Positions 5,301 through 44,415 of a stretch of DNA of 44,415 bases are shown one piece after another. The stretch is from an uncultured Ruminococcus sp. (GTDB lineage: Bacteria > Bacillota > Clostridia > Oscillospirales > CAG-272). The notes below the pieces were generated by a model. The model was not told the origin of the DNA. It searched no databases and saw only the letters and a program-made list of their open reading frames with translations. Where the stretch lies: the NCBI GenBank assembly GCA_964596195.1, contig CAZQTN010000002.1, positions 2,468 through 46,882 on the forward strand, in the 5' to 3' direction. Each line of letters starts with the position of its first letter. The first letter of the stretch is position 1. Both the position numbers and the translations under genes were made by a program.

Positions 5301-6626
5301 ATGAAACGGTTTATTTCTCCGATCAATCTTTTGTATTTTGGGCTTTTGAGCCTTGTTGCAAACGCTTACGTGCTTATCGATCTGTCACTTCTGACGCTGC
5401 TTTTTATCGTGCCGGCGCTCATCTTTTTGAACCTCTACGCCGGCACGATAACCTCGCAGACCAAAAGTATGCGTCTGCGCATTTGTCACCACGGCGGAGT
5501 ACTGCTTGGGGCATTCGCTATGTCGCTGGTGGTGTCCGTTCTCTTTCACGCCGTGCTTGCAATATTTACCTATAAAAGTAATCTGCCCTTGCTTATCAAG
5601 AGCGCGGAGTGGTGCATCGGTGTCTCGGAGCTGATATTCTGGAACGGTATGCTCTGCGTGTACGCAACCTCGAAGCAGATGGGCGTCAAGTGGCGCATCA
5701 TAGGTGCGATATGCGGTATGGTGCCCGTGATCAACATTATCGCGCTGAGCATTATTATCAATATAGTGATGGACGAGATAGAATACTCGCTTGAGCGCGA
5801 GCACATCGAGGAAAAGGGCGAGGCCGAAAGATGTAAGACCAAGTACCCGATACTCTTTGTTCACGGCGTGTTCTTCCGTGACTCGAAGCACTTTAACTAT
5901 TGGGGCAGGATACCACGCTCTCTCAAGGCACGCGGCGCGACCGTCTATTACGGAGAGCACCAATCGGCCCTTGCGGTTGCGGACAGCGGTCACGAGCTTG
6001 CCGCGAGGATCAGATACATACTCGACCGCTACGGCTGCGAAAAGGTGAACATAATCGCCCACTCCAAGGGCGGTCTCGACTGTCGCTACGCTATTTCCGA
6101 GTACGGCATTGCACCCTACGTTGCATCTCTTACTACGATAAACACGCCGCATAGGGGTTGTCTGTTTGCGGACAGGCTGCTTTCTCTTGCCTCGAACAGA
6201 CTAAAGAAATGCGTATCCACCGCGTACAACGTAACTCTGCGCGACCTCGGTGACGAGGACCCCGATTTTATGGCGGCGGTCACTGACCTTACGGCGGCGG
6301 AGTGCAACAAGCGAAACGAGAAATTGACCTTCCCGGACGGCATCTATGCGCAAAGCGTCGGCTCGGTTCTTCAAAAATGGCACACGGGACAATTTCCGCT
6401 CAATCTGTCTTATCACTACGTGAAAAAGTATGACGGTCAGAACGACGGTCTCGTCGGCGAGAGCTCTTTCTCCTGGGGAGAGAAATACACCCTCATCAAG
6501 GTTGAGGGAAAGCACGGCGTTTCTCATTGTGACGTGATCGATCTGACGCGCGCCGACCTTAAGTACTTCGACGTTCTGGAGTTCTATTCAAACCTTGTTG
6601 AGGATCTGAAAAACAGGGGATTATAA
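5301..6626 (+). CDS. Membrane-anchored triacylglycerol lipase-like alpha/beta hydrolase
   Basis: Preferred start is the ATG at 5301, 9 nt after AAGGAGG; the track ORF starts at 5268. The first ~170 aa form several hydrophobic helices. The C-terminal part has YPILFVHGVFF and IIAHSKGGLD (lipase class 2 GxSxG). Confidence 0.6.
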   Translation: MKRFISPINLLYFGLLSLVANAYVLIDLSLLTLLFIVPALIFLNLYAGTITSQTKSMRLRICHHGGVLLGAFAMSLVVSVLFHAVLAIFTYKSNLPLLIKSAEWCIGVSELIFWNGMLCVYATSKQMGVKWRIIGAICGMVPVINIIALSIIINIVMDEIEYSLEREHIEEKGEAERCKTKYPILFVHGVFFRDSKHFNYWGRIPRSLKARGATVYYGEHQSALAVADSGHELAARIRYILDRYGCEKVNIIAHSKGGLDCRYAISEYGIAPYVASLTTINTPHRGCLFADRLLSLASNRLKKCVSTAYNVTLRDLGDEDPDFMAAVTDLTAAECNKRNEKLTFPDGIYAQSVGSVLQKWHTGQFPLNLSYHYVKKYDGQNDGLVGESSFSWGEKYTLIKVEGKHGVSHCDVIDLTRADLKYFDVLEFYSNLVEDLKNRGL

Positions 6627-6688
6627 TATTGAAAAAAGTTACACGGGTGCCTGCTTTTGGCATCGTGATTAGGTTGCAAACGACCGGA

Positions 6689-6726
6689 GGCGGCCGAGGA
6701 ATATACTCCCTCGGCCGCCTTTTATT
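6689..6726 (+). terminator. Intrinsic terminator after the lipase gene
   Basis: GGCGGCCGAGG (6689-6699) pairs with CCTCGGCCGCC (6709-6719), followed by TTTTATT. Confidence 0.8.
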
Positions 6727-6730
6727 ACAT

Positions 6731-6759
6731 TTGAACAACAGTCTTGAAAATGGTATAAT
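6731..6759 (+). promoter_or_regulatory. Sigma-A type promoter upstream of the LysM-CAP gene
   Basis: TTGAAC (6731-6736), 17-nt spacer, TATAAT (6754-6759). Confidence 0.5.
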
Positions 6760-6930
6760 TATATTGCTTTGGCGGCAGGGCACTTATGTTGTGCCTGTTT
6801 TATTTTGTCGCTTTTGCAAAATTTGAGAAAGGAGAAAATTGGTCGCCTTGCGTGCGACCATCTAGGCAATCGCAACGTATTCGAATTAAGTTGCGCTTGC
6901 CTAAAAGAAAAAAGAAAAGGAGATTTCAAA

Positions 6931-7548
6931 TTGAAAAGAATTTTAACAGTTTTACTTTGTACAGTTATGCTGTTCGGAGCGCTTGCATCAGGGGTGCGAG
7001 TCTCTGCCGCCACTACCACGCATACCGTCGTTAAGGGCGACACTATGTGGCGCATCGCAGTCAAATACGAGGTCGGCATCTCGGAATTGAAGAGCGCAAA
7101 TACACACATTAAAAATTACGATCTTATCTACCCCGGTCAGAGGATCAATATCCCCTCGCTTGACTCGTCCGTGAGTGCATACGAGCAGGAGGTAGTTCGC
7201 CTCGTTAACGAGATCCGCAAGGAGAACGGGCTTAGCGCCCTTACCCACGATTGGGAGCTCTCTCGCGTGGCAAGATATAAGTCGCAGGATATGCGCGACC
7301 TCGCATACTTCTCGCACACAAGTCCGACGTACGGCTCCCCCTTTGATATGATGAAGAGCTTTGGAATTTCATATAGAACGGCAGGCGAGAATATCGCCAA
7401 GGGATACAAGACCCCTGCGGCCGTCGTTGACGGGTGGATGAACTCGTCCGGCCACCGCGCAAATATACTTAATTCGTCCTTCACGCACATCGGTGTAGGC
7501 TACGTTGCAAGCGGCAACTATTGGACGCAGATGTTTGTGGGAAGATAA
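6931..7548 (+). CDS. Secreted LysM + CAP/SCP (YkwD-like) domain protein
   Basis: Preferred TTG start at 6931, 8 nt after AAAAGGAG, gives the signal peptide LKRILTVLLCTVMLFGALASGVRVSA. LysM motif HTVVKGDTMWRIAVKY...YPGQRINIP. CAP domain motifs GENIA...GWMNSSGHRANIL...HIGVGY. Confidence 0.7.
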   Translation: MKRILTVLLCTVMLFGALASGVRVSAATTTHTVVKGDTMWRIAVKYEVGISELKSANTHIKNYDLIYPGQRINIPSLDSSVSAYEQEVVRLVNEIRKENGLSALTHDWELSRVARYKSQDMRDLAYFSHTSPTYGSPFDMMKSFGISYRTAGENIAKGYKTPAAVVDGWMNSSGHRANILNSSFTHIGVGYVASGNYWTQMFVGR

Positions 7549-7563
7549 ATTCAAGCTTGGGCG

Positions 7564-7592
7564 TTGACATTTGAGTCGTGTTGGGTTATAAT
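7564..7592 (+). promoter_or_regulatory. Canonical sigma-A promoter for the histidine phosphatase / large surface protein unit
   Basis: TTGACA (7564-7569), 17-nt spacer, TATAAT (7587-7592). Confidence 0.6.
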
Positions 7593-7629
7593 TATTATAT
7601 CTTTGATATAAAAGGAGAGATAATATAAA

Positions 7630-8340
7630 ATGCTTTTCTTCTACGTACGACACGGAGACCCGATATACGACCCCGATTCGCTGACTCCCCTCGGGCACAG
7701 ACAGGCCGAGGCCGTGGCGAAGAGGCTGGCAACCTTCGGTCTTGACGAGATATACGCCTCAACCTCAAATCGCGCGGTGCTCACCGCAACTCCGACCTCC
7801 GAGCTTACCAAAAAGACGATCACCAAGCTCGATTGGGCGAACGAGGGACACGCGTGGGACGAGCTTACGGTAAAGACCCCCGAGGGCAAGCGCTGGCTCT
7901 TCCACAGGACCGAAATGAAGGAGCTTTTCCACACCCCCGAGATCAAGGCTCTCGGCTTTGAGTGGTATAAGCATCCCGCATTTGCAGAGTATGATTACAA
8001 GGGCGGCATCGAGCGCATTCAGCGCGAGTCGGATGCATTCTTTGAGTCGCTCGGTTACAAGCACGAGGGTGGCGGAAAGTACAAGGTGGTCGCGAAAAAT
8101 GACAAGCGTGTGGCGCTTTTTGCGCACCAAGGCTTCGGATTGGCGTTCCTTTCCTGCGTTTTGGCTATACCTTACCCCATGTTTTGCTCGCACTTTGACC
8201 TCGGCCTTACGAGCGTGACGGTCATCAACTTCGCGGAGGAGAACGGATACGCCTATCCAAGGGTACTGACCTATTCCAACGACTCGCACATATACAGAGA
8301 AGGCTTGCCCACTAAAGGAGCAAATTATATAAGCTATTGA
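7630..8340 (+). CDS. Histidine phosphatase (phosphoglycerate mutase-like) family protein
   Basis: RBS AAGGAGAG. The N-terminal FYVRHGDPIYDP...LTPLGHRQAE contains the RHG catalytic motif. Confidence 0.65.
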   Translation: MLFFYVRHGDPIYDPDSLTPLGHRQAEAVAKRLATFGLDEIYASTSNRAVLTATPTSELTKKTITKLDWANEGHAWDELTVKTPEGKRWLFHRTEMKELFHTPEIKALGFEWYKHPAFAEYDYKGGIERIQRESDAFFESLGYKHEGGGKYKVVAKNDKRVALFAHQGFGLAFLSCVLAIPYPMFCSHFDLGLTSVTVINFAEENGYAYPRVLTYSNDSHIYREGLPTKGANYISY

Positions 8341-8405: not shown

Positions 8406-11400
8406 ATGAAGAAGGTCACCAAGCTTCTGATTCTGACATTGTCACTTGTAATGCTTTGCGGCGTTTTTGCCGTCACGGCGCTTGCTGAGAGCGTTACGGA
8501 CACCGACTCATCGTACGGCACGGCAACCGTTGCCGACGGAAACCTTTACGAGGTCGTGTACAACGGCTCCTCGACGTACTATGATTCAAGCACTACGCTT
8601 CAGGACGTTATTACCGCAGCGCCCTCGGGCTCTACCATTTATTTTCTCGGTGACGTGACCGAGGTTACCGACCGTTATGAAAATCCCAACAAGGCGGGAG
8701 AATATGTTGCCACTCCTGTAAGAGTAACCAAGCCACTTACTTTTGATCTGGGCGGGCACACACTTACCTTTGAACAGCGCGCAAAGAATTGCGGTATTTA
8801 TATAAGTACAACGGAGCTCGTCACCTTTAAAAACGGTAACGTTGCCACCGTGGCTCATTCCGATTATAACAGCAGTGGCAAAACGTTCGCATTTTCTAAC
8901 ATAAGCGCGAACGGAGCCAACGTTGCGTTCGAGGGGATAAATTCGTGCGTCAGCTCGCTCGTTTACTCATACAGCAGTAACTACACGATCACCGTAAAGG
9001 GCGGCGTCCATACCTTGAACAGCGCTCCAGCGGATATGAATACCCCCGGATTTATCTCAGGACAGCATAATATCAATGCGACCGTAATCGACGCCGTAAT
9101 ATACGCTAACGACAGAGCGATTTTGGGTGCGTCCTCTTATAAGGTGACGGGCACCACGTCTCGCATAACCACCTTCGATTTTGAAAACTGTAAAATAATT
9201 TCCAAGTCTGCCGAGACCAATATCATCGGCAACGCGAACATATATACCAACGTAAACTTTAATGGCTGCCACATATTGGGTAGTGTGACACCGTCGATCA
9301 ATGCGTCGGATGCCAATGTAGGAATAACGGTAGCTACCGCAAAGAATTTCGTGCTCGGCGAGAACACGTTTTTCTCATCCGGCTCCAATCTGTCCGCCAC
9401 TTCAACGGTTTCCGCAGGTATGGCTGTTCAGCCTACCGCCGAGCAAGCATTGGTTAACGGAGCGATGTATGAATTTGACCGCAAGGTAGATTTCATATAT
9501 GCTACCTGGTACGACGAGAATGGAGAGGTGCTCAAGCGCATAAAGATCGATTCCACCGTCACTACTCTTTCGGGACTTGCTCCCGATTACGCGGGAACAG
9601 GTGGCACCGCTAACGGATGGTACAGGATCGGCGGCTACGTCGCGAACGCTTGGACCGATACCGTCAACGGTAATAAAGCGGTGGACTTTTCCGCTATTGA
9701 CGTAGCCTCGATCACCGAGGGCATTTCGTTCTATCCTCTCGCTGACGAAAGCGAGATCAGCGCAGACCTCCGCGCCGCGATGTACAATCTCTCCACCGCG
9801 GGCGCAATCCAAAGCAACCTATACATTCCCGAAACCCCCGATAACGTTGAGATCCTCGGCGTTTACGCAGGAGAGAGGGAAGTGGCCGGCAAGCTCGTGC
9901 TTTACCACAATCACACGGATGACCCCGTGTATTACACGATGTACGTTATAGGCGAGGTTGGAGCAACTGAGTTTACCAAGAATACGGATGTTACCGTTAA
10001 GTACAGAGTAAACGGAAGCGTCGATCTTGAGCAGGTATACAGCCTGTCTCCCGAAAAGTATGCAAATGTCATTTATGACGATTCTCAGAAAAACGAGGGC
10101 AACTCATACGGCGAGGAGGCGTACAACGTAGTCGCAGACCTCGTAAGATACTCATATCTCCTTTCCGTTTACACGGGTGCTGAGGATGCCGACCTTACCG
10201 CTCTTTATAACAAAATGTATGCACTCTGCTCCGAGCTTCCCTCCGATAATGCTCTTGCAGGCTCTGTTACGAATGCCTTCACCCTCGCGGGCGCAGGCTC
10301 TATCGCATACGAGGCGTCAAGCTACGAGCCGAGATGGAGATTTACGCTTAACGAATCCGCACAGATCATAGACGCCAAGATCACCCTTGAGGGGTATAGC
10401 GTCGGCACTCTCGCCGATCGCACCAATTTCACCACTCATACCTACGGTATAGAGCAGATAACCAAGACTGCTGAGGGCTATATCACCGCCGCATATACCG
10501 AAAACATTCCGATTTATAATATCACACAGCCGTTCACCATTACCTTTACCAAGGCGGATGGCACCGAAATTTCAGGTACATACGATCTTAAATCGTACTA
10601 TACCGCCGTCAGCAAGGGCACCGCGGCAGCGGACTTCATCAAGTCGGTCGTCGCTCTTTCCGATTCCACAGTCGCATACAAGTTCCCTGAGGGCAGGGTT
10701 ACGGCAGATGACGTAGCCGACTTCTGGGAGTGCGATCACGCAGATGCAGTCAAGCAGGAAAACGTCGTATCTTACATCTACAACTTCCATCCTCGCTATT
10801 GCAGAAGGTGTGACTCCTGGCTCTTCTACTATGAGGACTACGGCGCTGTGGCAGACGGTGTGACTAACCGTACCCGTGCCACTCACGTCTCCGGCACGAA
10901 CGACTACGAGGCGATCTATTGGACTCATACGAACGCCAACGAGTGGAAGGCAAGGGACTATCTTTCGGGCGGTAAGCACGTTGCCGTCGTAGGCAACTCC
11001 GATCCTGCGAATGCCAAATATTACTACATCAGCCTTCCCGAGGGTCGCGGTATTTATACCGCTGATGCTAACCGCGACGGGATACCCGAGACTACATATA
11101 CCGGTCAGAACCTCGGTACTATCACCGTCGCTACCGACACCTCCTGGAACGGCGTTAATCTTATCATCGATGACGATGCGATCTGTAATGCTAGCGGATG
11201 CTCGTGTGTGAACGACGTCGGCGTTGCAAGAAAGCACGCTTATAACAGTCAGTCCATTTTCGCTATCGACGAGTACGGCTCGGAAAACTACACCGAGAGC
11301 CTGACGGGCAAGATCACCTCTCTTAGCGCAGGGGCTACCAACATCGGCTATGCTCCCGGCCGCAAGATGCTCGTTCAGCTTACCGACTCGAACAAAAAGA

Positions 11401-12716
11401 TCTATTTGCGCTACGGCTCTAATGCAAGCAACGGCGCATCCGTTACCGAGGTCATTCTCGTTGACGAGTTTGGAAACGTTGATCCCTCGACTCCCGTTCA
11501 GTGGGATTACGCCACGATAACCGGCGCTACGGCGTATGCGGTAGACGTCGATCCTATCAAGATCTCGGGTCTTGATGCGGCAGGTGCTATTAATGCAAGC
11601 TTTGAGAGCTACGTTAACAACTCCTTGAGCATCAGTATTCCGCATTACGTATCCTGCTCCAGAAATATTGCTATCAAGCGCTCTAATGCAACCGTTGAGG
11701 GTATCGAACGCTTCTTCACCGAGGAGGTAGCTAACTCCAACGTTACCAACAAGCGCTTTGCGTACACCTTTATCACCGTAAATCTGTGCTCGAATGCTAC
11801 CATAAAGGATATGCTCGTTATGAACCATAACAGCCAGTCCGGTGAATCTGGCGTCAGCCAGGGCTCGTACGAGTTCAGTGGCGGCAACGCAAACGCCGTA
11901 AGCTGGATCAACTGCGTAACGAAGAATATGTTCTCCAGCACTAAGGACGGATCTCTTGTTCAGGCTTATCCCGTTTACAGAGGTCTGTTCGGTACCAACC
12001 ATATCCGTAATATGTATCTCAAGGGCTGTTACCTTAACTCCTTTGATGCACACACAGGCGCGTACAACGTAACTATTGAGGACACCACCGTTGAGCATAT
12101 GAACTTTATCGGCGGCGGTGATATCATCATAAAGAACGTCGTAGTGTATACAGCGAGTCAGGGCATGGCATTCAATCTCCGTACCGACTACGGCTCGACC
12201 TGGAGAGGTGACGTATACGTAGACGGCCTTACCGTCAAGTACGCTCTCGCAAGCGGATACAAGCCCTCTAGGATCACCATCTTCAATGGATCTTACGCTA
12301 ATCAGTATTGGGGCTTTGATACCTACGCTCCGCAGAACGTAACGATCAACAATTTCCACATACAGTCGTATACTGCTACCGTTTCAAACGGTGTAAGAAC
12401 CGAGACCCTCGGAATCAAGGATAACTCGTATATGCCGGTATACTACTACTATGCTCTCAACAGCCTTAAGGATACCGACGTTCCCGACGAGAGTAAGGCC
12501 GGCATCCACGGACCTACCGATAAGGGCGATTCCAGCATTACCTACGATTACGGTACTAACAGACTCGTATGTACCCAGAAGATCACCATAACCAACAGCG
12601 TGGATATCACGATTCCCACCGGTAGCTTCTGGAAGGATATGACTGTGACCGTTGACGGTGTAGCCAAGAGGTGGGTTGGAACCGATGGCTCCGGCAACTG
12701 GGAAGACGAGGAATAA
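8406..12716 (+). CDS. Very large secreted right-handed beta-helix (pectate-lyase-fold) protein, function unknown
   Basis: Preferred start is the ATG at 8406 (GGAG 5 nt upstream). It gives MKKVTKLLILTLSLVMLCGVFAVTALA, a typical signal peptide; the track ORF starts at 8337. The sequence is Asn/Thr/Gly-rich and periodic. An internal DYGAVADGVTNRT...AIYW motif resembles the N-cap of pectate_lyase_3 / GH28 / GH55-type beta-helices. No LPXTG, SLH, dockerin or transmembrane anchor is visible at the C-terminus. Confidence 0.55.
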   Translation: MKKVTKLLILTLSLVMLCGVFAVTALAESVTDTDSSYGTATVADGNLYEVVYNGSSTYYDSSTTLQDVITAAPSGSTIYFLGDVTEVTDRYENPNKAGEYVATPVRVTKPLTFDLGGHTLTFEQRAKNCGIYISTTELVTFKNGNVATVAHSDYNSSGKTFAFSNISANGANVAFEGINSCVSSLVYSYSSNYTITVKGGVHTLNSAPADMNTPGFISGQHNINATVIDAVIYANDRAILGASSYKVTGTTSRITTFDFENCKIISKSAETNIIGNANIYTNVNFNGCHILGSVTPSINASDANVGITVATAKNFVLGENTFFSSGSNLSATSTVSAGMAVQPTAEQALVNGAMYEFDRKVDFIYATWYDENGEVLKRIKIDSTVTTLSGLAPDYAGTGGTANGWYRIGGYVANAWTDTVNGNKAVDFSAIDVASITEGISFYPLADESEISADLRAAMYNLSTAGAIQSNLYIPETPDNVEILGVYAGEREVAGKLVLYHNHTDDPVYYTMYVIGEVGATEFTKNTDVTVKYRVNGSVDLEQVYSLSPEKYANVIYDDSQKNEGNSYGEEAYNVVADLVRYSYLLSVYTGAEDADLTALYNKMYALCSELPSDNALAGSVTNAFTLAGAGSIAYEASSYEPRWRFTLNESAQIIDAKITLEGYSVGTLADRTNFTTHTYGIEQITKTAEGYITAAYTENIPIYNITQPFTITFTKADGTEISGTYDLKSYYTAVSKGTAAADFIKSVVALSDSTVAYKFPEGRVTADDVADFWECDHADAVKQENVVSYIYNFHPRYCRRCDSWLFYYEDYGAVADGVTNRTRATHVSGTNDYEAIYWTHTNANEWKARDYLSGGKHVAVVGNSDPANAKYYYISLPEGRGIYTADANRDGIPETTYTGQNLGTITVATDTSWNGVNLIIDDDAICNASGCSCVNDVGVARKHAYNSQSIFAIDEYGSENYTESLTGKITSLSAGATNIGYAPGRKMLVQLTDSNKKIYLRYGSNASNGASVTEVILVDEFGNVDPSTPVQWDYATITGATAYAVDVDPIKISGLDAAGAINASFESYVNNSLSISIPHYVSCSRNIAIKRSNATVEGIERFFTEEVANSNVTNKRFAYTFITVNLCSNATIKDMLVMNHNSQSGESGVSQGSYEFSGGNANAVSWINCVTKNMFSSTKDGSLVQAYPVYRGLFGTNHIRNMYLKGCYLNSFDAHTGAYNVTIEDTTVEHMNFIGGGDIIIKNVVVYTASQGMAFNLRTDYGSTWRGDVYVDGLTVKYALASGYKPSRITIFNGSYANQYWGFDTYAPQNVTINNFHIQSYTATVSNGVRTETLGIKDNSYMPVYYYYALNSLKDTDVPDESKAGIHGPTDKGDSSITYDYGTNRLVCTQKITITNSVDITIPTGSFWKDMTVTVDGVAKRWVGTDGSGNWEDEE

Positions 12717-36185: not shown

Positions 36186-36692
36186 TCAGCCCTCCGACGA
36201 TCCTCTATCCAGCTCGATGAATTGCTTTACATCTATCACTCCTTTGGAGAGCATAAAGAATTTCTCGTTATAATCTTCAACCGTCATGACTCCGACTGCG
36301 ATTATATAATCGATAAGATCGCCGCTCAGGTCGCTCCCGCGATAGCTGCAGGTCACGCGATATCTTATTTCACCATCTGATATGTCGTAATCAAAGCTTC
36401 CGTCAACAAGTCCGTAGTTCGCGACAGAAATGGCAATTGCGCCCTCAACGCGCTTGTCCTCCTCCATATTAAACGGAAGCTTGGAAATAAACTGAACTAC
36501 CTGATTTTTTGCGTTTACAACAATGATAAATTCAATAGGCAGATCATCTCCCTTTACGCCGGTATTTATAACGAGATCTTCGTCGTGCTGTTCATACGTC
36601 CACCCCATTTTGTCAAGGTGTTTTATAATGCTGCTATAAACCTCGTATGCTCTTTCCATATTGATTTCCTGTGCCATTTTTATATCCTTCAT
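36186..36692 (-). CDS. YbjN-domain (putative chaperone/sensory) family protein
   Basis: 168 aa. The pattern ...GWTYEQHDEDLVINTGVKGDDLPIEFIIVVNAKNQVVQFIS resembles YbjN / type III chaperone-like proteins. The real start is more likely the second ATG at 36677 (GAAGGA 8 nt upstream). Confidence 0.5.
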   Translation of the reverse strand: MKDIKMAQEINMERAYEVYSSIIKHLDKMGWTYEQHDEDLVINTGVKGDDLPIEFIIVVNAKNQVVQFISKLPFNMEEDKRVEGAIAISVANYGLVDGSFDYDISDGEIRYRVTCSYRGSDLSGDLIDYIIAVGVMTVEDYNEKFFMLSKGVIDVKQFIELDRGSSEG

Positions 36693-39445: not shown

Positions 39446-39955
39446 TTATTTACCGCTTACCTTGATGTTTTTGCTCCTCAAAAAGGCGAGGAAATCTTCC
39501 TTTGTGCCCTTGGTGAAGCCGTCCTTGCTAAATGAGTAAATCAGGCGCGCATCCGAGCGAAGCACTATGTAGCGTTTAGTTTGTACGGCGCCTCTGATCT
39601 TTGAAAGCTCGATGTTGATGACCGCGCCGGTTGACGAGGTTGTTTCCAAAGCACCCTCGTGCACGAGGGTGCTTATGCTTATCTGCTCACTTGAAACCTC
39701 CTTGTTGCACTTTTCGAGAGTGCCTATCTGGCTAAGGTACGCAAATAACTTAAAAAGCGGAAAGACGGCCATAAGTATCATAATACCCGGATTGTGTTCG
39801 AGGTCGAAAATCGCAAGCACGAGTTGCGCAAGGAAGCAAACGGCGCAGATAATAAATGCGGCTACGGTGATCGGGCGACGGAAATGAAAGTAGCCGTAGA
39901 TCTCCTTATAGAATGATTTATCGGGCGTGTAGCTGTTTTCAAATAATGGTTCCAT
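39446..39955 (-). CDS. YcxB-like membrane protein (two TM helices + bPH-like C-domain), tentative
   Basis: Preferred ATG at 39955 (RBS AAAGGAG). FYKEIYGYFHFRRP followed by two hydrophobic helices and a C-terminal ...YIVLRSDARLIYSFSKDGF.KGT.EDF..FL is typical of YcxB family proteins. Confidence 0.5.
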   Translation of the reverse strand: MEPLFENSYTPDKSFYKEIYGYFHFRRPITVAAFIICAVCFLAQLVLAIFDLEHNPGIMILMAVFPLFKLFAYLSQIGTLEKCNKEVSSEQISISTLVHEGALETTSSTGAVINIELSKIRGAVQTKRYIVLRSDARLIYSFSKDGFTKGTKEDFLAFLRSKNIKVSGK

Positions 39956-40027
39956 TTTGCGCTCCTTTCTTGTTGATAGAATGGTGGCCTGCGAGGTCAT
40001 TATAGCACAAAAGAGGTGCAAGGTCAA

Positions 40028-40094
40028 GTAGGGGCGATTCACGAATCGCCCGCATTTACCGAGGTTTCACGGGCGATTCGTGAATCGCCCCTAC
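40028..40094. repeat. Two inverted copies of the GGGCGATTC(A/G)(C/T)GAATCGCCC REP-like element
   Basis: GTAGGGGCGATTCACGAATCGCCC (40028-40051) and GGGCGATTCGTGAATCGCCCCTAC (40071-40094), separated by 19 nt. Same family as 26983-27010. Confidence 0.85.
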
Positions 40095-40097
40095 ATA

Positions 40098-40124
40098 TGA
40101 AAACAGCACCTCGGTTGAGGTGCT
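40098..40124 (-). terminator. Intrinsic terminator-like hairpin (minus strand)
   Basis: AGCACCTC-AACC-GAGGTGCT followed by GTTTTCA on the minus strand. Confidence 0.5.
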
Positions 40125-40274
40125 TTGCGCCACCGCGGGTATTCGCCGATGGCGAAGATATCTCACCTTTCACGATACCTCGCAAGCGGGCATCGGTAAG
40201 AAAGGTGGATATGTGAACCGGATTTCTTGCGCTTTGCGCGGCGAAAGCCCGGCTCAAAGCGAGAGCTGCGTCTC

Positions 40275-40316
40275 CCAAAAGAAAGAAAACAGCACTCCTG
40301 ATGGAGTGCTGTTTTC
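40275..40316 (-). terminator. Intrinsic terminator immediately after tRNA-Cys
   Basis: GAAAACAGCACTCC / GGAGTGCTGTTTTC 14-bp stem (40285-40316). On the minus strand it is followed by TTTCTTTTGGG. Confidence 0.8.
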
Positions 40317-40318
40317 TT

Positions 40319-40393
40319 TGGAGGCGCCACCCGGATTTGAACCGGGGGATAGAGGTTTTGCAGACCTGTGCCTTACCGCTTGGCCATGGCGCC
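40319..40393 (-). tRNA. tRNA-Cys (anticodon GCA), CCA encoded
   Basis: The reverse complement reads GGCGCCATGGCCAAGCGGTAAGGCACAGGTCTGCAAAACCTCTATCCCCCGGTTCAAATCCGGGTGGCGCCTCCA (75 nt). It has a 7-bp acceptor stem GGCGCCA/TGGCGCC, anticodon loop CTGCAAA and T-arm GGTTCAAATCC. Confidence 0.92.
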
Positions 40394-40412
40394 GTTCAAT
40401 TTACGCTATATT

Positions 40413-40441
40413 ATTATAGCAGACAGTTTTTGGTTTGTCAA
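40413..40441 (-). promoter_or_regulatory. Canonical sigma-A promoter of tRNA-Cys
   Basis: On the minus strand: TTGACA (40441-40436), 17-nt spacer, TATAAT (40418-40413), about 20 nt upstream of the tRNA 5' end. Confidence 0.7.
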
Positions 40442-40557
40442 GAGGGAAAAGTATTTTTTGAGAAGTTTTTATGTGTTTTTATGTGTAAGCATTTTACTCT
40501 AATATAATATGATGAAAACGAGTGTGACGTACCAAGTAACGCGGTGCATAATCTTGT

Positions 40558-40773
40558 TCATTTTTGTATATTGGGATTATCGCTGATGCCTAGGATGTAA
40601 TCGACAGAAACACTATAAAACGTCGACAGCTTTATAAGTATATCGGTAGGAATATCTCTTTGGCCGAGCTCGTAGTTGCTATAAACTTGCTGTGAGCAGT
40701 TCAAGACTTGGGCGACAGCCCTTTGTGTGAGATCGTTATCCTCGCGCAGATCTCTAATTCTTTTATATATCAT
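40558..40773 (-). CDS. XRE-family helix-turn-helix transcriptional regulator (71 aa)
   Basis: Preferred ATG at 40773 (GGAG 5 nt upstream). IRDLREDNDLTQRAVAQVLNCSQQVYSNYELGQRDIPTDILIKLSTFY is a classic Cro/CI-type HTH_3. Confidence 0.85.
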   Translation of the reverse strand: MIYKRIRDLREDNDLTQRAVAQVLNCSQQVYSNYELGQRDIPTDILIKLSTFYSVSVDYILGISDNPNIQK

Positions 40774-40812
40774 AACAGCTCCATTTTTGACAGTTAGTAT
40801 GAAAATTATAAC

Positions 40813-40859
40813 AAACCGCAAAATGCAGTATTGACTTATACCGCAAATTGCGGTATAAT
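40813..40859 (+). promoter_or_regulatory. Promoter with an embedded perfect operator palindrome, plus an upstream imperfect copy
   Basis: TTGACT (40831-40836), 17-nt spacer, TATAAT (40854-40859). The spacer and -10 contain ATACCGCAA-A-TTGCGGTAT (40838-40856). A related AAACCGCAA-A-ATGCAGTAT lies at 40813-40831. Confidence 0.65.
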
Positions 40860-40915
40860 ATCATCAAAAGCACAATGGGTGTGCTTTTGAGAATTAATGA
40901 CGGGAGAATTTTGTT

Positions 40916-41377
40916 ATGTTTGGAATTGTTATTGTAGGTATAATTATTTTGGTTGTGTTTTTGATTATCAATTATAATATGGCGCAGAATATGCAGGAAA
41001 TAGTTGAAAAAAAGGGATATACCGACTTAAGAGTCGTGACGATTTGCTTTTGGCTCGGCATTATCGGATATCTTTACGTCATAGCTTTGCCCGATCTTGA
41101 AGAGCGCAGACTCCTTAAGAAAATCGCGGGAGAGGAAGTTGATGTTGGTGATATACAATGCTCTGAGAGAGTTATAAAACCTCGAAAGCCAATCGAATTA
41201 ACTTATAATTGCGAAAGCATTATTGTTATGGAAAAGGATTTTGAGGACAGGTGCACATTTTGCCAACGTAAAAGCACTGTAAGATATTGCAAAATAAAAA
41301 AGGATATTGGCACACAACGCATAGCGCTTTGCGAAGATTGTATTAATAAATTTAAGGATAGCTGCGCGAGCAAATAA
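40916..41377 (+). CDS. Small membrane protein with a C-terminal CxxC...CxxC zinc-ribbon (ClpX-ZBD-like spacing), function unknown
   Basis: 153 aa with RBS GGGAG. Two TM helices (FGIVIVGIIILVVFLIINY; VVTICFWLGIIGYLYVIALPD). The C-terminus is RCTFCQRKSTVRYCKIKKDIGTQRIALCEDCINKF. Very AT-rich coding sequence. Confidence 0.6.
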   Translation: MFGIVIVGIIILVVFLIINYNMAQNMQEIVEKKGYTDLRVVTICFWLGIIGYLYVIALPDLEERRLLKKIAGEEVDVGDIQCSERVIKPRKPIELTYNCESIIVMEKDFEDRCTFCQRKSTVRYCKIKKDIGTQRIALCEDCINKFKDSCASK

Positions 41378-41391
41378 GCGAGTGCGTTGTA

Positions 41392-41420
41392 TTGACAAAC
41401 ACAAAAATATGCAGTATACT
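41392..41420 (+). promoter_or_regulatory. Canonical sigma-A promoter
   Basis: TTGACA (41392-41397), 17-nt spacer, TATACT (41415-41420). Confidence 0.55.
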
Positions 41421-41458
41421 TATCTCATCATGTACTTTACTTTTAAGGAGTAAAATCT

Positions 41459-41992
41459 ATGGCGAAAGAAGTCAAAAAGAAAAGCGAGGGAAGGGGCAAC
41501 TCAACTATGAACATAAAAATTATCGAGTATATCGTACAAGCAGTAAAAAACATTTCCGAAATATGCAATAAGGTTGTTGATGCCTCGGATCCCAAAAAGT
41601 ATGCCGAGGGTGTTAATGCACTTAACGAAAATGTTGATGAAACATACGCAAAAATGAGGGAATTGATTACTCAAGACGATACTTTGACTGCAACGGAAAA
41701 AGTCGAAAAGCTGGAAAAATTAGCCGAGAGTCAGCAAGCTGCTCTGAGGGCTTGTAAAGATGATATAAAAGATAACAGAGAGCACATCGCCAAAATTGTT
41801 ACCGAGGTTTTTGCTGCGCTTGCTACTTGTGGTGTTTCTTGCATTCCAAAGGTTATTAAAGGATGCAAAAAAGCTTGTGTTGCGATGCCTGATGATGTGT
41901 TGATTGAGAGTGATATTCCGATTGATTACATTGAAGAAGCAAAAAGCAATAACGAAAACGCAAACGAATCTAATCTTGATTTAGTACATTAA
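41459..41992 (+). CDS. Hypothetical helical protein with a Cys-rich hydrophobic segment
   Basis: 177 aa, with RBS AAGGAG 8 nt upstream. The helical, charged N-part (LTATEKVEKLEKLAESQQAALRACKDDIKDNREH) is followed by IAKIVTEVFAALATCGVSCIPKVIKGCKKAC and an acidic tail. No family recognised. Confidence 0.5.
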   Translation: MAKEVKKKSEGRGNSTMNIKIIEYIVQAVKNISEICNKVVDASDPKKYAEGVNALNENVDETYAKMRELITQDDTLTATEKVEKLEKLAESQQAALRACKDDIKDNREHIAKIVTEVFAALATCGVSCIPKVIKGCKKACVAMPDDVLIESDIPIDYIEEAKSNNENANESNLDLVH

Positions 41993-42011
41993 AAAATCAG
42001 AGGTTATTATA

Positions 42012-42188
42012 ATGGCAAAAGAGAAAAGATTTGAAAAGGTTTATGCTCAGGGGGCGGGGTCTACCGAGATCTGGGTTGACAAGGAAACCGGCGTTAATTA
42101 TTTGTACCACGCAAGCGGATATGCCGGTGGGTTGACGGTTCTCGTCGACAAGGACGGAAAGCCGATAGTAACGCTCACCGAGGATTGA
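42012..42188 (+). CDS. Small DUF6440-like protein (58 aa; below the ORF-track cutoff)
   Basis: ATG at 42012 after AGAGGT. MAKEKRFEKVYAQGAGSTEIWVDKETGVNYLYHASGYAGGLTVLVDKDGKPIVTLTED; the VDKETGVNYL...GGLT.L.D.DGKP pattern matches my memory of DUF6440 proteins. Confidence 0.5.
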   Translation: MAKEKRFEKVYAQGAGSTEIWVDKETGVNYLYHASGYAGGLTVLVDKDGKPIVTLTED

Positions 42189-42298
42189 CGGTTGCAAGCT
42201 GTGAAGCACGAGGTTAAAAGCCTTCTCCGCTTAGAACGCCATTTTAAAGAACAGTTTTGCAAGAATACGGTATATCTCGAAAGAGGTATGCCGTATTT

Positions 42299-42320
42299 TG
42301 CATTTGTGGACACAAATGCA
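42299..42320. repeat. Perfect 10+2+10 palindrome TGCATTTGTG-GA-CACAAATGCA
   Basis: Read directly from the sequence. Located at the GC/AT transition at the right edge of the AT-rich islet. Confidence 0.7.
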
Positions 42321-42364
42321 GTGCTTGTCAGGAAAATTGATAAGTGAATCGGTGATAAAGGCCG

Positions 42365-42543
42365 TCCCTCGTGTCATCCTGAGCGGAGGGCAAGGCCCGA
42401 AGTCGAACTCGAAGGGCGATGCATAGCATCGGGATCTACGAGGGAAAAGAAGTGTTTTGCTCGCCCGAGATCCTGCTTGGCTGATGCCTCGCACTGCTTC
42501 GCAGTTCGACTCCGCTACGCTTCGCTCAGGATGACACGGGCGA
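42365..42543. repeat. ~180-bp imperfect long inverted repeat (MITE/REP-like element)
   Basis: Outer arms CGTGTCATCCTGAGCG (42370-42385) / CGCTCAGGATGACACG (42523-42538). Inner arms AGTCGAACT (42401-42409) / AGTTCGACT (42503-42511) and GGGATCT / AGATCC. Confidence 0.7.
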
Positions 42544-42742
42544 GACTTCGTTCCACAAAAGGTTTCTTGAATCAACTCAGCGCTTATCAATAAAAAGGAC
42601 GAGTGCCTTTTCATTGCTCTTTTTCCCATCTTTTGGAACTTATTTTGGGCGGATTTTTGTCAATAGGTAAAATCAACAAATTTAATGAATTTTTTTCTAC
42701 GAAATTATACGCCGAAAAAACACCATATCTTGATTTTTGGAC

Positions 42743-42772
42743 TTGACTTTTACACTAGATATAGTGTATAAT
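42743..42772 (+). promoter_or_regulatory. nrdD promoter with an embedded NrdR box
   Basis: TTGACT (42743-42748), 18-nt spacer, TATAAT (42767-42772). The spacer holds the 16-bp palindrome ACACTAGATATAGTGT (42752-42767), which fits the NrdR-box consensus acaCwAtATaTwGtgt. Confidence 0.7.
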
Positions 42773-42829
42773 TGTTCTCGCTAACACAATTTGAGCTCGG
42801 GCACGAGTGATGCCGCGAGAGCTCCCGGG

Positions 42830-42900
42830 AGCGCCGATTTTGCGGCGCGTCGAGATCGTTCAGAATCTCTTGTAGCGCCGATTTTTCGGCGCGCTTTTTT
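42830..42900 (+). promoter_or_regulatory. Two near-identical 20-nt hairpins in the nrdD leader, the second followed by T6
   Basis: AGCGCCGATTTTGCGGCGCG (42830-42849) and AGCGCCGATTTTTCGGCGCG (42874-42893). Each folds as GCGCCG/CGGCGC. The second is followed by CTTTTTT. Confidence 0.45.
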
Positions 42901-42969
42901 GCCGATACGGTAAATTAGGAAAAAACAGGAAAAATTAAGAAGCATCGTAAATACAGAAAGGAGAACATA

Positions 42970-44415
42970 ATGAAGCTTATTAAGAGAAGCGGCGCAGAGG
43001 TCGTTTTTGAGAAGGAAAAGATTACGGCCGCCGTTCTGAAGGCGAACGCCGCAGTTGACCCGTCTGCCGCTATTTCTGAAAACGAAATAAGAAAAATTAC
43101 AGATAGAGTCGAGAAAAAGTGCGAGAAGCTCCGCCGTGCGGTCACGGTTGAGGAGGTGCAGGATATGGTCGAGGACGAGATAATGCGCCTCGGTGCATTC
43201 GTGCTTGCAAAGGCCTATATTACATACAGATACCGCCGCGCCCTCGTGCGCAAGTCGAACACGACTGACGATAAGATACTCTCTCTTATCGAGTGCAACA
43301 ACGAGGAGGTAAAGCAGGAGAACTCGAATAAGAACCCCACCGTTAACAGCGTTCAGCGCGACTATATGGCAGGCGAGGTGTCCAAGGACATTACCCGCCG
43401 TCTGCTCCTCTCCGAGGATATAGTAAGGGCGCACGAGGAGGGACTTATCCACTTCCACGATGCGGACTATTTCGCACAGCATATGCACAACTGCGACCTC
43501 GTCAACCTCGGTGATATGCTTGAGAACGGTACCGTTATCAGCGGCACGATGATAGAGAAGCCGCACAGCTTTTCCACCGCTTGTAATATCGCAACGCAGA
43601 TAATCGCGCAGGTCGCGTCCAACCAGTACGGCGGACAGTCGATCAGCCTTACACACCTTGCGCCCTTCGTTGACATCAGCCGCAAGAAGATCCGCGAGGC
43701 GGTTAAAAAGGAGCTTGCTGAGATCGGCGTTTTCGAGGAAGAGGCTATCAACAAGATCGCAGAGGGCAGACTCCGCGAGGAGATCAATCGCGGTGTTCAG
43801 TGCATTCAGTATCAGGTGGTTACGCTTCTGACGACTAACGGCCAGGCGCCCTTTATTACTATATTTATGTACCTCGGCGAGGCGAGAAACGAGCAGGAAA
43901 AGGCCGACCTCGCGCTCATTATCGAGGAGACCCTTGAGCAGCGCATAAAGGGCGTTAAGAACGAGACCGGCGTGTGGATCACACCCGCGTTCCCCAAGCT
44001 CATCTACGTCCTTGAGGAGGACAACGTTCGCCCCGGCTCGAAGTATCACTACCTCACCGAGCTTGCGGCAAAGTGCACCGCAAAGAGAATGGTGCCCGAC
44101 TATATCTCCGAAAAGATAATGCTGAAGAACAAGATCGACAAGAACGGAGAGGGACATTGCTACACCTGTATGGGTTGCCGCAGCTTCCTTACCCCTTACG
44201 TCGACGAGAACGGTCAGCCTAAGTACTACGGCCGCTTCAATCAGGGGGTCGTAACCGTCAACCTCGTTGATATCGCGCTCTCTGCCGGCGGCGATATGGA
44301 GAAGTTCCGCGAGGTGTTCGACGAGCGTATGCAGCTCTGCCACAAGGCGCTTCGCGCCCGTCACGAGCGTCTGCTCGGCACTCTTTCGGATGCTGCGCCC
44401 ATCCTGTGGCAGTAC
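42970..44415 (+). CDS. nrdD: Anaerobic ribonucleoside-triphosphate reductase (class III), 3' end outside window
   Basis: ATG at 42970 after AAGGAG; the frame is open to the window end (482 codons), so it is absent from the ORF track. ATP-cone start MKLIKRSGAEVVFEKEKI. QRDYMAGEVSKD..., AHEEGLIHFHDADY and IATQIIAQVASNQYGGQS match NrdD. Confidence 0.88.
   Translation, partial: MKLIKRSGAEVVFEKEKITAAVLKANAAVDPSAAISENEIRKITDRVEKKCEKLRRAVTVEEVQDMVEDEIMRLGAFVLAKAYITYRYRRALVRKSNTTDDKILSLIECNNEEVKQENSNKNPTVNSVQRDYMAGEVSKDITRRLLLSEDIVRAHEEGLIHFHDADYFAQHMHNCDLVNLGDMLENGTVISGTMIEKPHSFSTACNIATQIIAQVASNQYGGQSISLTHLAPFVDISRKKIREAVKKELAEIGVFEEEAINKIAEGRLREEINRGVQCIQYQVVTLLTTNGQAPFITIFMYLGEARNEQEKADLALIIEETLEQRIKGVKNETGVWITPAFPKLIYVLEEDNVRPGSKYHYLTELAAKCTAKRMVPDYISEKIMLKNKIDKNGEGHCYTCMGCRSFLTPYVDENGQPKYYGRFNQGVVTVNLVDIALSAGGDMEKFREVFDERMQLCHKALRARHERLLGTLSDAAPILWQY

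Follow-up and report, generated by a model that had tools for sequence, protein, structure and literature searches.

An AT-rich islet of about 2 kb (positions 40394-42360) lies between a tRNA-Cys gene and the anaerobic ribonucleotide reductase gene nrdD in the window, by which we mean the whole stretch of 44,415 nucleotides analysed here from contig CAZQTN010000002.1 of an uncultured Ruminococcus sp. The islet probably shows one local form of a hotspot of gene turnover in an uncultured lineage (a genus) of gut Clostridia. It would be a mosaic whose four pieces were inherited independently of one another and that amounts to accessory cargo under repression by an XRE-type protein; we place the probability of this account, which covers the structure and the evolution of the islet, at about 0.65. 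Judged from sequence, the four genes do not make up a single cassette for defence or toxicity. The first piece would be a repressor unit of ~300 bp, made up of a 71-aa XRE protein, back-to-back promoters and two 15-bp operators, that keeps the genes to its right off. The second, the TM gene, would be the resident gene of the locus, encoding a two-transmembrane hairpin from a large unnamed family with a zinc-ribbon tail added. The third, HEL, would be a rare and lineage-restricted helical protein that is usually found beside an XRE-type regulator, and the fourth a DUF6440 gene of native composition. Most likely the cargo has a membrane-associated accessory role, not essential to the cell and normally kept repressed; that it is a dedicated toxin or an effector of phage defence is less likely. 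More broadly, the compact layout of a repressor followed by small membrane genes can be a mosaic and not a system, and as the evidence stands this one is an ordinary variable islet with control of the Cro/CI type. The principal features are as follows.

40558-40773, minus strand: XRE/Cro-CI-type repressor, 71 aa, helix-turn-helix (HTH) domain only (HTH_3, E=1.5e-13)
40805-40859, both strands: bidirectional control region with promoter and operator elements, putatively bound by XRE
40916-41377, plus strand: TM, 153-aa membrane protein with an N-terminal two-transmembrane core and a C-terminal CxxC...CxxC zinc ribbon, from hydropathy and AlphaFold2 (AF2) modelling
41392-41420, plus strand: putative HEL promoter, TTGACA-17-TATACT, 11/12 match
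41459-41992, plus strand: HEL, helical protein, 177 aa, AF2 predicted local distance difference test (pLDDT) 59, AAGGAG 8 nt upstream of the ATG
42012-42188, plus strand: DUF6440 protein, 58 aa (PF20037, E=9e-27)

Composition and gene turnover between tRNA-Cys and nrdD

The G+C content of 40394-42360 is 0.380 against 0.517 across the remaining window (z = -8.9, with non-overlapping positions of the window as the reference), and this is the most AT-rich 1967-bp stretch of the window, the minimum elsewhere being 0.481. The original prediction for this DNA, made from its letters alone, had reported such a sharp drop, and its inventory of the islet likewise stands: the tRNA-Cys, the 71-aa XRE regulator, the 153-aa two-transmembrane protein with its CxxC pairs, the 177-aa helical protein with a promoter of its own and the 58-aa DUF6440 protein are all present, and the long inverted repeat that it placed at the right edge corresponds to the arms of a ~180-nt hairpin at 42364-42547. 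It had also stated that the islet lacks an integrase, a recombinase, a nuclease and an ATPase, and none was found in the list of open reading frames (ORFs) or with Pfam. The divergent, Cro/CI-like repressor layout with an operator that it described is borne out by two operator-like palindromes in the shared control region. Its view that the gene combination belongs to no described system agrees with the database searches, in which the TM and HEL proteins gave nothing above sub-threshold noise in Pfam, PHROGs, PADLOC or NCBIfam and nothing below E=0.07 in PDB sequence searches with the family profiles.

The extent of the islet can be drawn more narrowly on both compositional and comparative grounds. 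Its first ~48 nt (40394-40441) are the tRNA-Cys gene's own promoter, a 12/12 match to consensus, and the block 40282-40480 is 88-96% conserved among relatives; the variable part consequently begins near 40481. G+C at third codon positions (GC3) is 0.44 in the XRE gene, 0.37 in the TM gene and 0.35 in the HEL gene, and lies at 0.53-0.72 in 21 of the 22 other genes measured, the exception being a YbjN-like gene (36186-36692) at 0.49. The DUF6440 gene has a host-like composition (G+C 0.50, GC3 0.58). The compositional islet is the XRE, TM and HEL genes, and DUF6440 is not deviant.

The interval was compared on metagenome contigs and metagenome-assembled genome (MAG) contigs whose NrdD is 96-98% identical to that of the window (L003-L007, L010 and L091-L096; related loci are cited by such numbers throughout). 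Five arrangements emerge.

Arrangement 1 (window, L001, L002): XRE, TM with zinc ribbon (153 aa), HEL, DUF6440, hairpin
Arrangement 2 (L003-L010): YcxB, a 99-aa three-transmembrane protein, XRE, TM157, HEL, a 292-aa AAA_21 ATPase
Arrangement 3 (L091, L093, L095): TM85 alone
Arrangement 4 (L092, L094): a different XRE (89 aa), a 69-aa glycine-zipper protein, a 247-aa protein, TM85
Arrangement 5 (L096): the tRNA-XRE-control segment (window 40282-40860) inverted, then 23S_rRNA_IVP, a 141-aa protein, TM89

TM is present in five of the five, XRE in three, HEL in two and DUF6440 in one. The idea of a cassette that travels as a unit, for which the original prediction had proposed a neighbourhood check, did not survive this comparison, as each gene has its own distribution; TM occurs without HEL (L091-L096, L108, L123, L125) and HEL without TM (L097-L099, L105-L107, L111, L112). 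Between the window and L003 the XRE proteins are 86% identical, the TM proteins 70% and the HEL proteins 71%, which is comparable with the flanking genes (69% for an aminoglycoside-N-acetyltransferase-like gene, NAT, and 71% for a 139-aa gene), and because of this the XRE-TM-HEL core looks vertically inherited between these two lineages.

Two of the arrangements merit description in their own right. In L096 the segment at 5559-6102 is window 40282-40860 inverted relative to nrdD, with extra tRNA-terminator-hairpin copies at 7479-7572. In L092 the segment at 6330-7752 holds the 89-aa XRE gene divergent from the genes for the glycine-zipper membrane protein and the 247-aa protein, a Cys-rich coiled coil, with GC3 of 0.28-0.36. 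Empty sites were sought in one genome per species with NrdD, and 80 loci were kept (NrdD at most 83% identical), the closest species-representative genomes being uncultured Clostridia/Eubacteriales MAGs from animal guts. The islet genes are absent from all 80, and a tRNA-Cys was seen in the 8 kb before nrdD in L079 alone, where it sits on the other strand at a distance of 6.4 kb; these loci were dropped as empty sites because they are too distant.

That the islet contains no more than ordinary lineage-specific core genes, whose AT-richness would reflect small, hydrophobic and weakly expressed proteins, is unlikely. The TM gene is indeed fixed at the locus and evolves at the rate of the flanking genes, G+C at second codon positions is as low as an abundance of Ile, Leu, Phe and Lys in the proteins would predict, and the composition of DUF6440 is normal. 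However, GC3, which is independent of amino-acid content, falls 0.2-0.3 short of the neighbouring genes as well, the XRE, HEL and DUF6440 genes come and go among very close relatives, with other genes in their place in each arrangement, and a segment is inverted in L096. Core genes of normal composition were what the original prediction had named as telling against it, and the TM gene goes part of the way there: it is kept throughout the five arrangements, although with a deviant composition. Given that five arrangements sit on near-identical backbones, the tRNA-Cys-nrdD hotspot is a possible natural experiment for gene turnover.

The XRE repressor and its operators

The repressor matches PF01381 (HTH_3) over residues 6-60 at 51 bits, above the gathering cut-off of 23. 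Its gene and the rightward genes share a control region whose elements are ordered as follows.

40805-40813, minus strand: extended -10 element of the XRE gene, TGTTATAAT
40815-40829: operator-like palindrome O1, ACCGCAAAATGCAGT
40831-40836, plus strand: cargo -35 element, TTGACT
40840-40854: operator O2, ACCGCAAATTGCGGT, a perfect dyad between the cargo -35 and -10
40854-40859, plus strand: cargo -10 element, TATAAT

O1 and O2 are 15-bp dyads whose centres are 25 bp apart, two copies of the motif ACCGCAAWWTGCRGT within a repressor-plus-operator unit of ~300 bp. O1 overlaps the promoter of the XRE gene itself, and O2 falls within the -35/-10 spacer of the divergent cargo promoter. They are the only exact operator sites in the window; allowing up to two mismatches, 5 matches were found, a number reached by 1 of 100 shuffles, and in related loci the operators are confined to this control region. 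An XRE dimer at O1 would most likely shut the repressor's own extended -10 promoter, a case of autorepression, and a dimer at O2 would most likely block the rightward transcript from between the cargo -35 and -10. The HEL gene would draw on its own promoter as well as on read-through from the TM gene; that promoter contains ATGCAGTAT, which resembles half of O1.

The architecture of the control region is kept in L003, L096, L113, L118 and L119, and the O2/-35/O1/-10 layout is conserved nearly base for base between window 40805-40859, L113 3920-3975, L119 960-1025 and L096 5559-5604. Relatives of the repressor are numerous: those 80-90% identical to it fill at least 120 distinct clusters drawn at 90% identity, and 7973 proteins match at E<=1e-10. 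For two close XRE relatives the surrounding genes were looked up (L113-L117 and L118-L122), and in these loci the unit with its O1/O2 and promoters adjoins unrelated cargo: an operon of signal-peptidase-like and secreted proteins (with weak Pfam support) divergent from XRE in the former, and a Cys-rich lipoprotein, again divergent, in the latter. Similarity between the units extends from the XRE stop codon to the cargo -10 and no further. The conserved entity is a unit of ~300 bp with varied cargo. Further, O2 is 15/15 identical in the TM promoter of L091-L095 (L091 7913-7945), where no matching XRE gene is adjacent, so that a paralogue from another locus may regulate this promoter in trans. 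The XRE/operator unit, widespread, highly conserved and attached to different cargo in uncultured gut Clostridia, is a by-product of this analysis with a value of its own as a tractable candidate for a shared regulatory circuit.

Such a layout raises the question of a phage origin. The islet could be the remnant of a prophage immunity or superinfection-exclusion region, an origin that the original prediction had offered, or a degraded island integrated at tRNA-Cys; either is very improbable. The Cro/CI-like order of repressor, divergent promoters and two operators fits, a tRNA is adjacent, the best scores of XRE are with PHROG transcriptional regulators and, below the cut-off, with the RstR model of a phage repressor, and in L008 a tyrosine integrase lies beside the same tRNA. 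That integrase (L008 555-1712), however, lies 143 bp from the 3' end of the tRNA-Cys, on the opposite side from the islet, with homology to the window ending at 40311; because of its position, the integrative element there uses the 3' side of the tRNA, opposite the islet, which sits on the 5' (promoter) side of the minus-strand gene. No integrase, recombinase or phage structural gene was found among the window ORFs between NAT (37815) and nrdD, and no repeat of the tRNA end was detected. The TM family occurs on 1 of 2.9 million viral contigs (IMG/VR; one weak locus, L100) and the HEL family on none, and neither matched anything in 50,697 phage records or 72,556 plasmid records. The best identity of XRE to a phage-borne protein, in phage records and viral contigs together, is 64-65%, against 80-90% for hundreds of non-viral relatives; judging by these comparisons, the XRE unit is not phage-borne. 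A prophage immunity or superinfection-exclusion cassette was consequently rejected, for want of phage genes and of phage homologues of TM and HEL, although the divergent promoter and operator layout fits it. A tRNA-targeted integrative island was rejected as well, there being no integrase, an islet on the 5' side and no direct repeat of 40319-40393 within 40000-43000. Likewise, a restriction-modification controller unit was discarded, since no endonuclease or methylase gene is among the ORFs between NAT (37815) and nrdD; against PADLOC, XRE matches generic HTH models only, with 'Control_protein' weak at 8.5e-5.

The cargo and the case for a defence module

The TM protein has two hydrophobic segments (Kyte-Doolittle 3.1 and 2.3) and CxxC pairs at residues 113-116 and 139-142. 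Its core is a predicted two-helix membrane hairpin in the N-terminal 60-70 residues, and the AF2 model is confident there only (pLDDT 75-95 over residues 1-70, 40-62 in the zinc ribbon). In the core K33, G34, C44, F45, G48, G51, Y52, L53, Y54, V55, I56, A57, L58 and P59 are invariant. A profile search finds 1379 clusters at 50% identity with E<=1e-3, 602 of them with E<=1e-10, and the core (K-G-Y/H...C-F-W-L-G-x-x-G-Y-L-Y-V-I-A-L-P) has no Pfam match in the 144 members scanned and matched no NCBIfam, PHROG or PDB entry. Among these 144 members the C-terminal additions include DZR (9), Zn_Ribbon_1 (7), Zn_ribbon_3 (7) and SHOCT (3); the tail type of the window protein, CxxC...LCxxCIxxF, recurs in the distant members P0090 and P0185, and close relatives carry acidic or helical tails in place of a zinc ribbon. 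We infer that the tail is cytoplasmic because its zinc-binding cysteines need a reducing compartment. Distant family members stand alone amid housekeeping genes in L108 and L125, and in L123 one follows a tRNA-Cys and precedes a 292-aa ATPase gene; given that such members occupy unrelated contexts, a functional link between TM and nrdD was rejected. The family, as far as its distribution tells, is a widespread and unnamed family of small membrane anchors that does not look like a sporadic toxin. Another by-product of the present work is this large two-transmembrane family itself, which has no Pfam model, counts at least 1379 clusters at the 50% identity level and keeps its core motif to a striking degree.

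HEL is of a different character. Its model has three long helices, a borderline hydrophobic helix that contains Cys (residues 111-129, Kyte-Doolittle 1.6) and a variable acidic tail; C99 and a T123-C124-G125 motif are invariant in the alignment, and a Foldseek search of the AF2 model against the PDB was uninformative, returning generic four-helix bundles at E of 0.12 or worse. Only 20 clusters make up this small family, every HEL contig looked up resembles the surroundings of the window in gene content, and a metagenome scan with the HEL profile yielded two short contigs only. HEL stands beside a divergent XRE-type HTH regulator in three diverged lineages (window/L003; L097-L099; L105-L107). 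That regulator gives a clear HTH match in the lineages of window/L003 and L097 and, in L105, one that falls short of the Pfam cut-off. In L097-L099 the XRE and HEL proteins are 40% and 41% identical to their window counterparts, and the operator sequences differ from lineage to lineage among the three pairings. In L111 and L112, by contrast, HEL is preceded by other genes and has neither an XRE gene nor an operator close by.

DUF6440 is a full-length match to PF20037 (93 bits, cut-off 26.5, model positions 1-53 of 53). Its start lies 19 nt after the HEL stop and is preceded by a GAGG ribosome-binding site, and because of this spacing and site it is probably co-transcribed with HEL. The family is widespread in Firmicutes and occurs also in Deinococcus; its neighbours elsewhere are mutually unrelated (a replication protein, chromate transporters, SPFH/NfeD genes), and no recurring partner emerged from the neighbourhoods examined. 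Neither those neighbourhoods nor the composition of the gene gave evidence that it is part of any module, and in the library of papers searched one incidental mention came up, outside title and abstract.

The repeated pairing of HEL with a regulator might recall a type II-like toxin-antitoxin pair formed by XRE with HEL or TM, the more so as XRE has weak, sub-threshold matches to MqsA, PezA and HipB-type antitoxin models and as small membrane proteins can be toxic. The likeness goes little further, and we regard such a pair as highly improbable. XRE, on the minus strand, is divergent from TM, HEL and DUF6440 and not co-transcribed with them, so the toxin-antitoxin-like layout suggested by the original prediction does not hold. 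XRE consists of an HTH with no toxin-binding extension, and near-identical XREs adjoin unrelated cargo elsewhere (L113-L122). Strict co-occurrence is absent: TM lacks an adjacent XRE in L091, L093, L095, L108, L123 and L125, and HEL does so in L111 and L112. Finally, TM and HEL match no toxin family in Pfam, NCBIfam or PADLOC, and the type II module was rejected on all of these counts.

A new defence or abortive-infection module is the main rival. In this case XRE would silence a membrane effector, TM and possibly HEL with it, until infection or stress intervened, an alternative that is improbable though the strongest of those considered. Low GC3 and a position in a hypervariable hotspot are in keeping with it, as is a cargo promoter that appears to be under tight operator control. 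In the sister locus L003 the TM-HEL pair is followed by a 292-aa AAA_21/AAA_15 ATPase (11070-11948) with a partial match to PtuA, AriA and AbiLi models (E=1e-12 to 1e-14), a copy 77% identical to it follows the distant TM-family gene of L123 (763-1641), and the hotspot also holds the glycine-zipper protein under a different XRE. Yet TM, HEL and DUF6440 have no hits at E<=1 among the PADLOC-DB 2.0 defence models, and the window itself is without an ATPase or nuclease; a defence-island setting may be indicated by the partial AAA_21 match in L003 (E about 1e-14) and by the general character of the hotspot, and the window has nothing comparable to that ATPase. Unlike a sporadic defence gene, the TM core recurs in each of the five arrangements, and members of its 1379-cluster family often stand alone amid housekeeping genes (L108, L125). 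HEL, for its part, is retained in L111 and L112, where no XRE gene or operator adjoins it, and a 4-nt overlap of the ATPase gene with a HAD hydrolase gene suggests that the two form an ordinary operon in L123.

Several observations nevertheless count against the account of the islet as a mosaic of independent pieces. In L003 the HEL and TM genes overlap by 20 nt, which suggests translational coupling there and makes a functional TM-HEL link possible in that sub-lineage. In L105 HEL is followed by the gene (1488-1853) for a 121-aa protein whose zinc ribbon is N-terminal and whose transmembrane segment is C-terminal; this protein is not homologous to the TM-zinc-ribbon protein of the window, and its architecture is mirrored, so that it hints at a recurring partnership of HEL with a tethered zinc ribbon, a lead and not a finding. 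The hotspot may collect defence genes, given the ATPase of L003. GC3 is low for these small genes in every genome examined, and it could stem from weak expression instead of foreign origin. The sampling of contexts is also small, many of the contigs being only 1-2 kb long.

A more speculative extension would combine these leads. In it, HEL and a membrane-tethered zinc ribbon would form an XRE-gated membrane module, a stress- or phage-triggered effector sometimes accompanied by a PtuA/AriA-like ATPase, and the XRE unit would serve as a portable 'silencing plug' for AT-rich cargo in gut Clostridia. The idea arises because the pairing is seen twice with non-homologous partners, the ribbon-bearing TM protein before HEL in the window and HEL before the ribbon-TM protein in L105; as a whole it is doubtful, and is best treated as conjecture. 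If the TM-HEL genes did prove to be a defence or stress effector, a new family would be defined.

Flanking features and likeness to known systems

The flanks and the right-hand spacer of the islet carry the following features.

40319-40393, minus strand: tRNA-Cys (anticodon GCA; ARAGORN; Rfam tRNA 62 bits)
40413-40441, minus strand: tRNA-Cys promoter, TTGACA-17-TATAAT with TG, 12/12 consensus
42189-42363: spacer, with a possible ORF inside
42192-42347, plus strand: possible 51-aa ORF directly after the DUF6440 stop, TTG start, GAGGA 6 nt upstream
42364-42547: G+C-rich (0.60) imperfect hairpin of ~180 nt, arms 42365-42388 and 42520-42543
42743-42772, plus strand: nrdD promoter, overlapping the palindrome that follows
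42752-42767: 16-bp palindrome ACACTAGATATAGTGT, with a weaker copy 32 bp upstream (42720-42735)
42970-44415, plus strand: nrdD, anaerobic ribonucleotide reductase, cut by the end of the window

Upstream of the tRNA lie YcxB-like, NAT, GH28-like, YbjN, GDPD and TMEM164 genes. At 40028-40094 two perfectly complementary 25-nt arms, each itself palindromic (GGGCGATTCACGAATCGCCC), overlap the 5' end annotated for the YcxB-like gene (39446-40042). The 51-aa ORF of the spacer has no Pfam match and is matched only by L001, a public contig identical to the islet. This contig spans window 40367-42311 and breaks inside the tRNA and just before the hairpin, and variable flanks in the sampled population are a possible reason.

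The hairpin (folding energy -99 kcal/mol, z -6.7) is an insertion specific to this lineage, placed upstream of nrdD; the close-relative loci lack it, and L089 alone has a match, of 32 nt. It has no Rfam family, no match among plasmid records, no other copy in the window and no full copy in the loci fetched, and it could be an insertion like a miniature inverted-repeat transposable element or a repetitive extragenic palindrome, or else a large terminator. Homology with relatives resumes at 42621-42654, the right conserved flank, beyond which the palindrome at 42752-42767 resembles an NrdR box and, with the weaker copy, looks like a tandem pair of such boxes.

By its HTH_3 match and its dyad operators, the repressor counts as a member of the XRE family. 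As in the Cro/CI proteins of phage immunity switches and in C proteins, XRE is a repressor of ~70 aa with an HTH and little else, served by back-to-back promoters and paired palindromic operators; a prophage immunity cassette likewise shares the repressor with divergent promoters and operators. The XRE unit differs from both Cro/CI and C-protein units in that it has no phage, restriction enzyme or methylase partner, its cargo being small uncharacterised proteins, in that the repressor has no sensor or oligomerisation domain, and in that the unit turns up in many uncultured gut Clostridia, at 80-90% identity, beside unrelated cargo. The TM protein is akin to the small membrane anchors of Firmicutes with zinc-ribbon or SHOCT tails, in which a two-transmembrane hairpin is followed by a short cytoplasmic domain, although its core falls under no Pfam entry and its tail is a sub-type common to P0090 and P0185. 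The DUF6440 protein is a full-length member of PF20037, a family without known function, and membership therefore says nothing about the islet. With respect to hotspots that collect defence genes, the sister locus has its PtuA/AriA-like ATPase, whereas nothing in the window version matches a known defence protein. Integrase, att repeat and transposase are all lacking in the islet, which lies 5' of its tRNA and in which the TM gene is constant; in these respects it departs from integration hotspots. In overall form the tRNA-Cys-nrdD interval is like chromosomal variability hotspots, which often adjoin tRNA genes, and shares with them conserved flanks, short variable content, low G+C and small unassigned genes.

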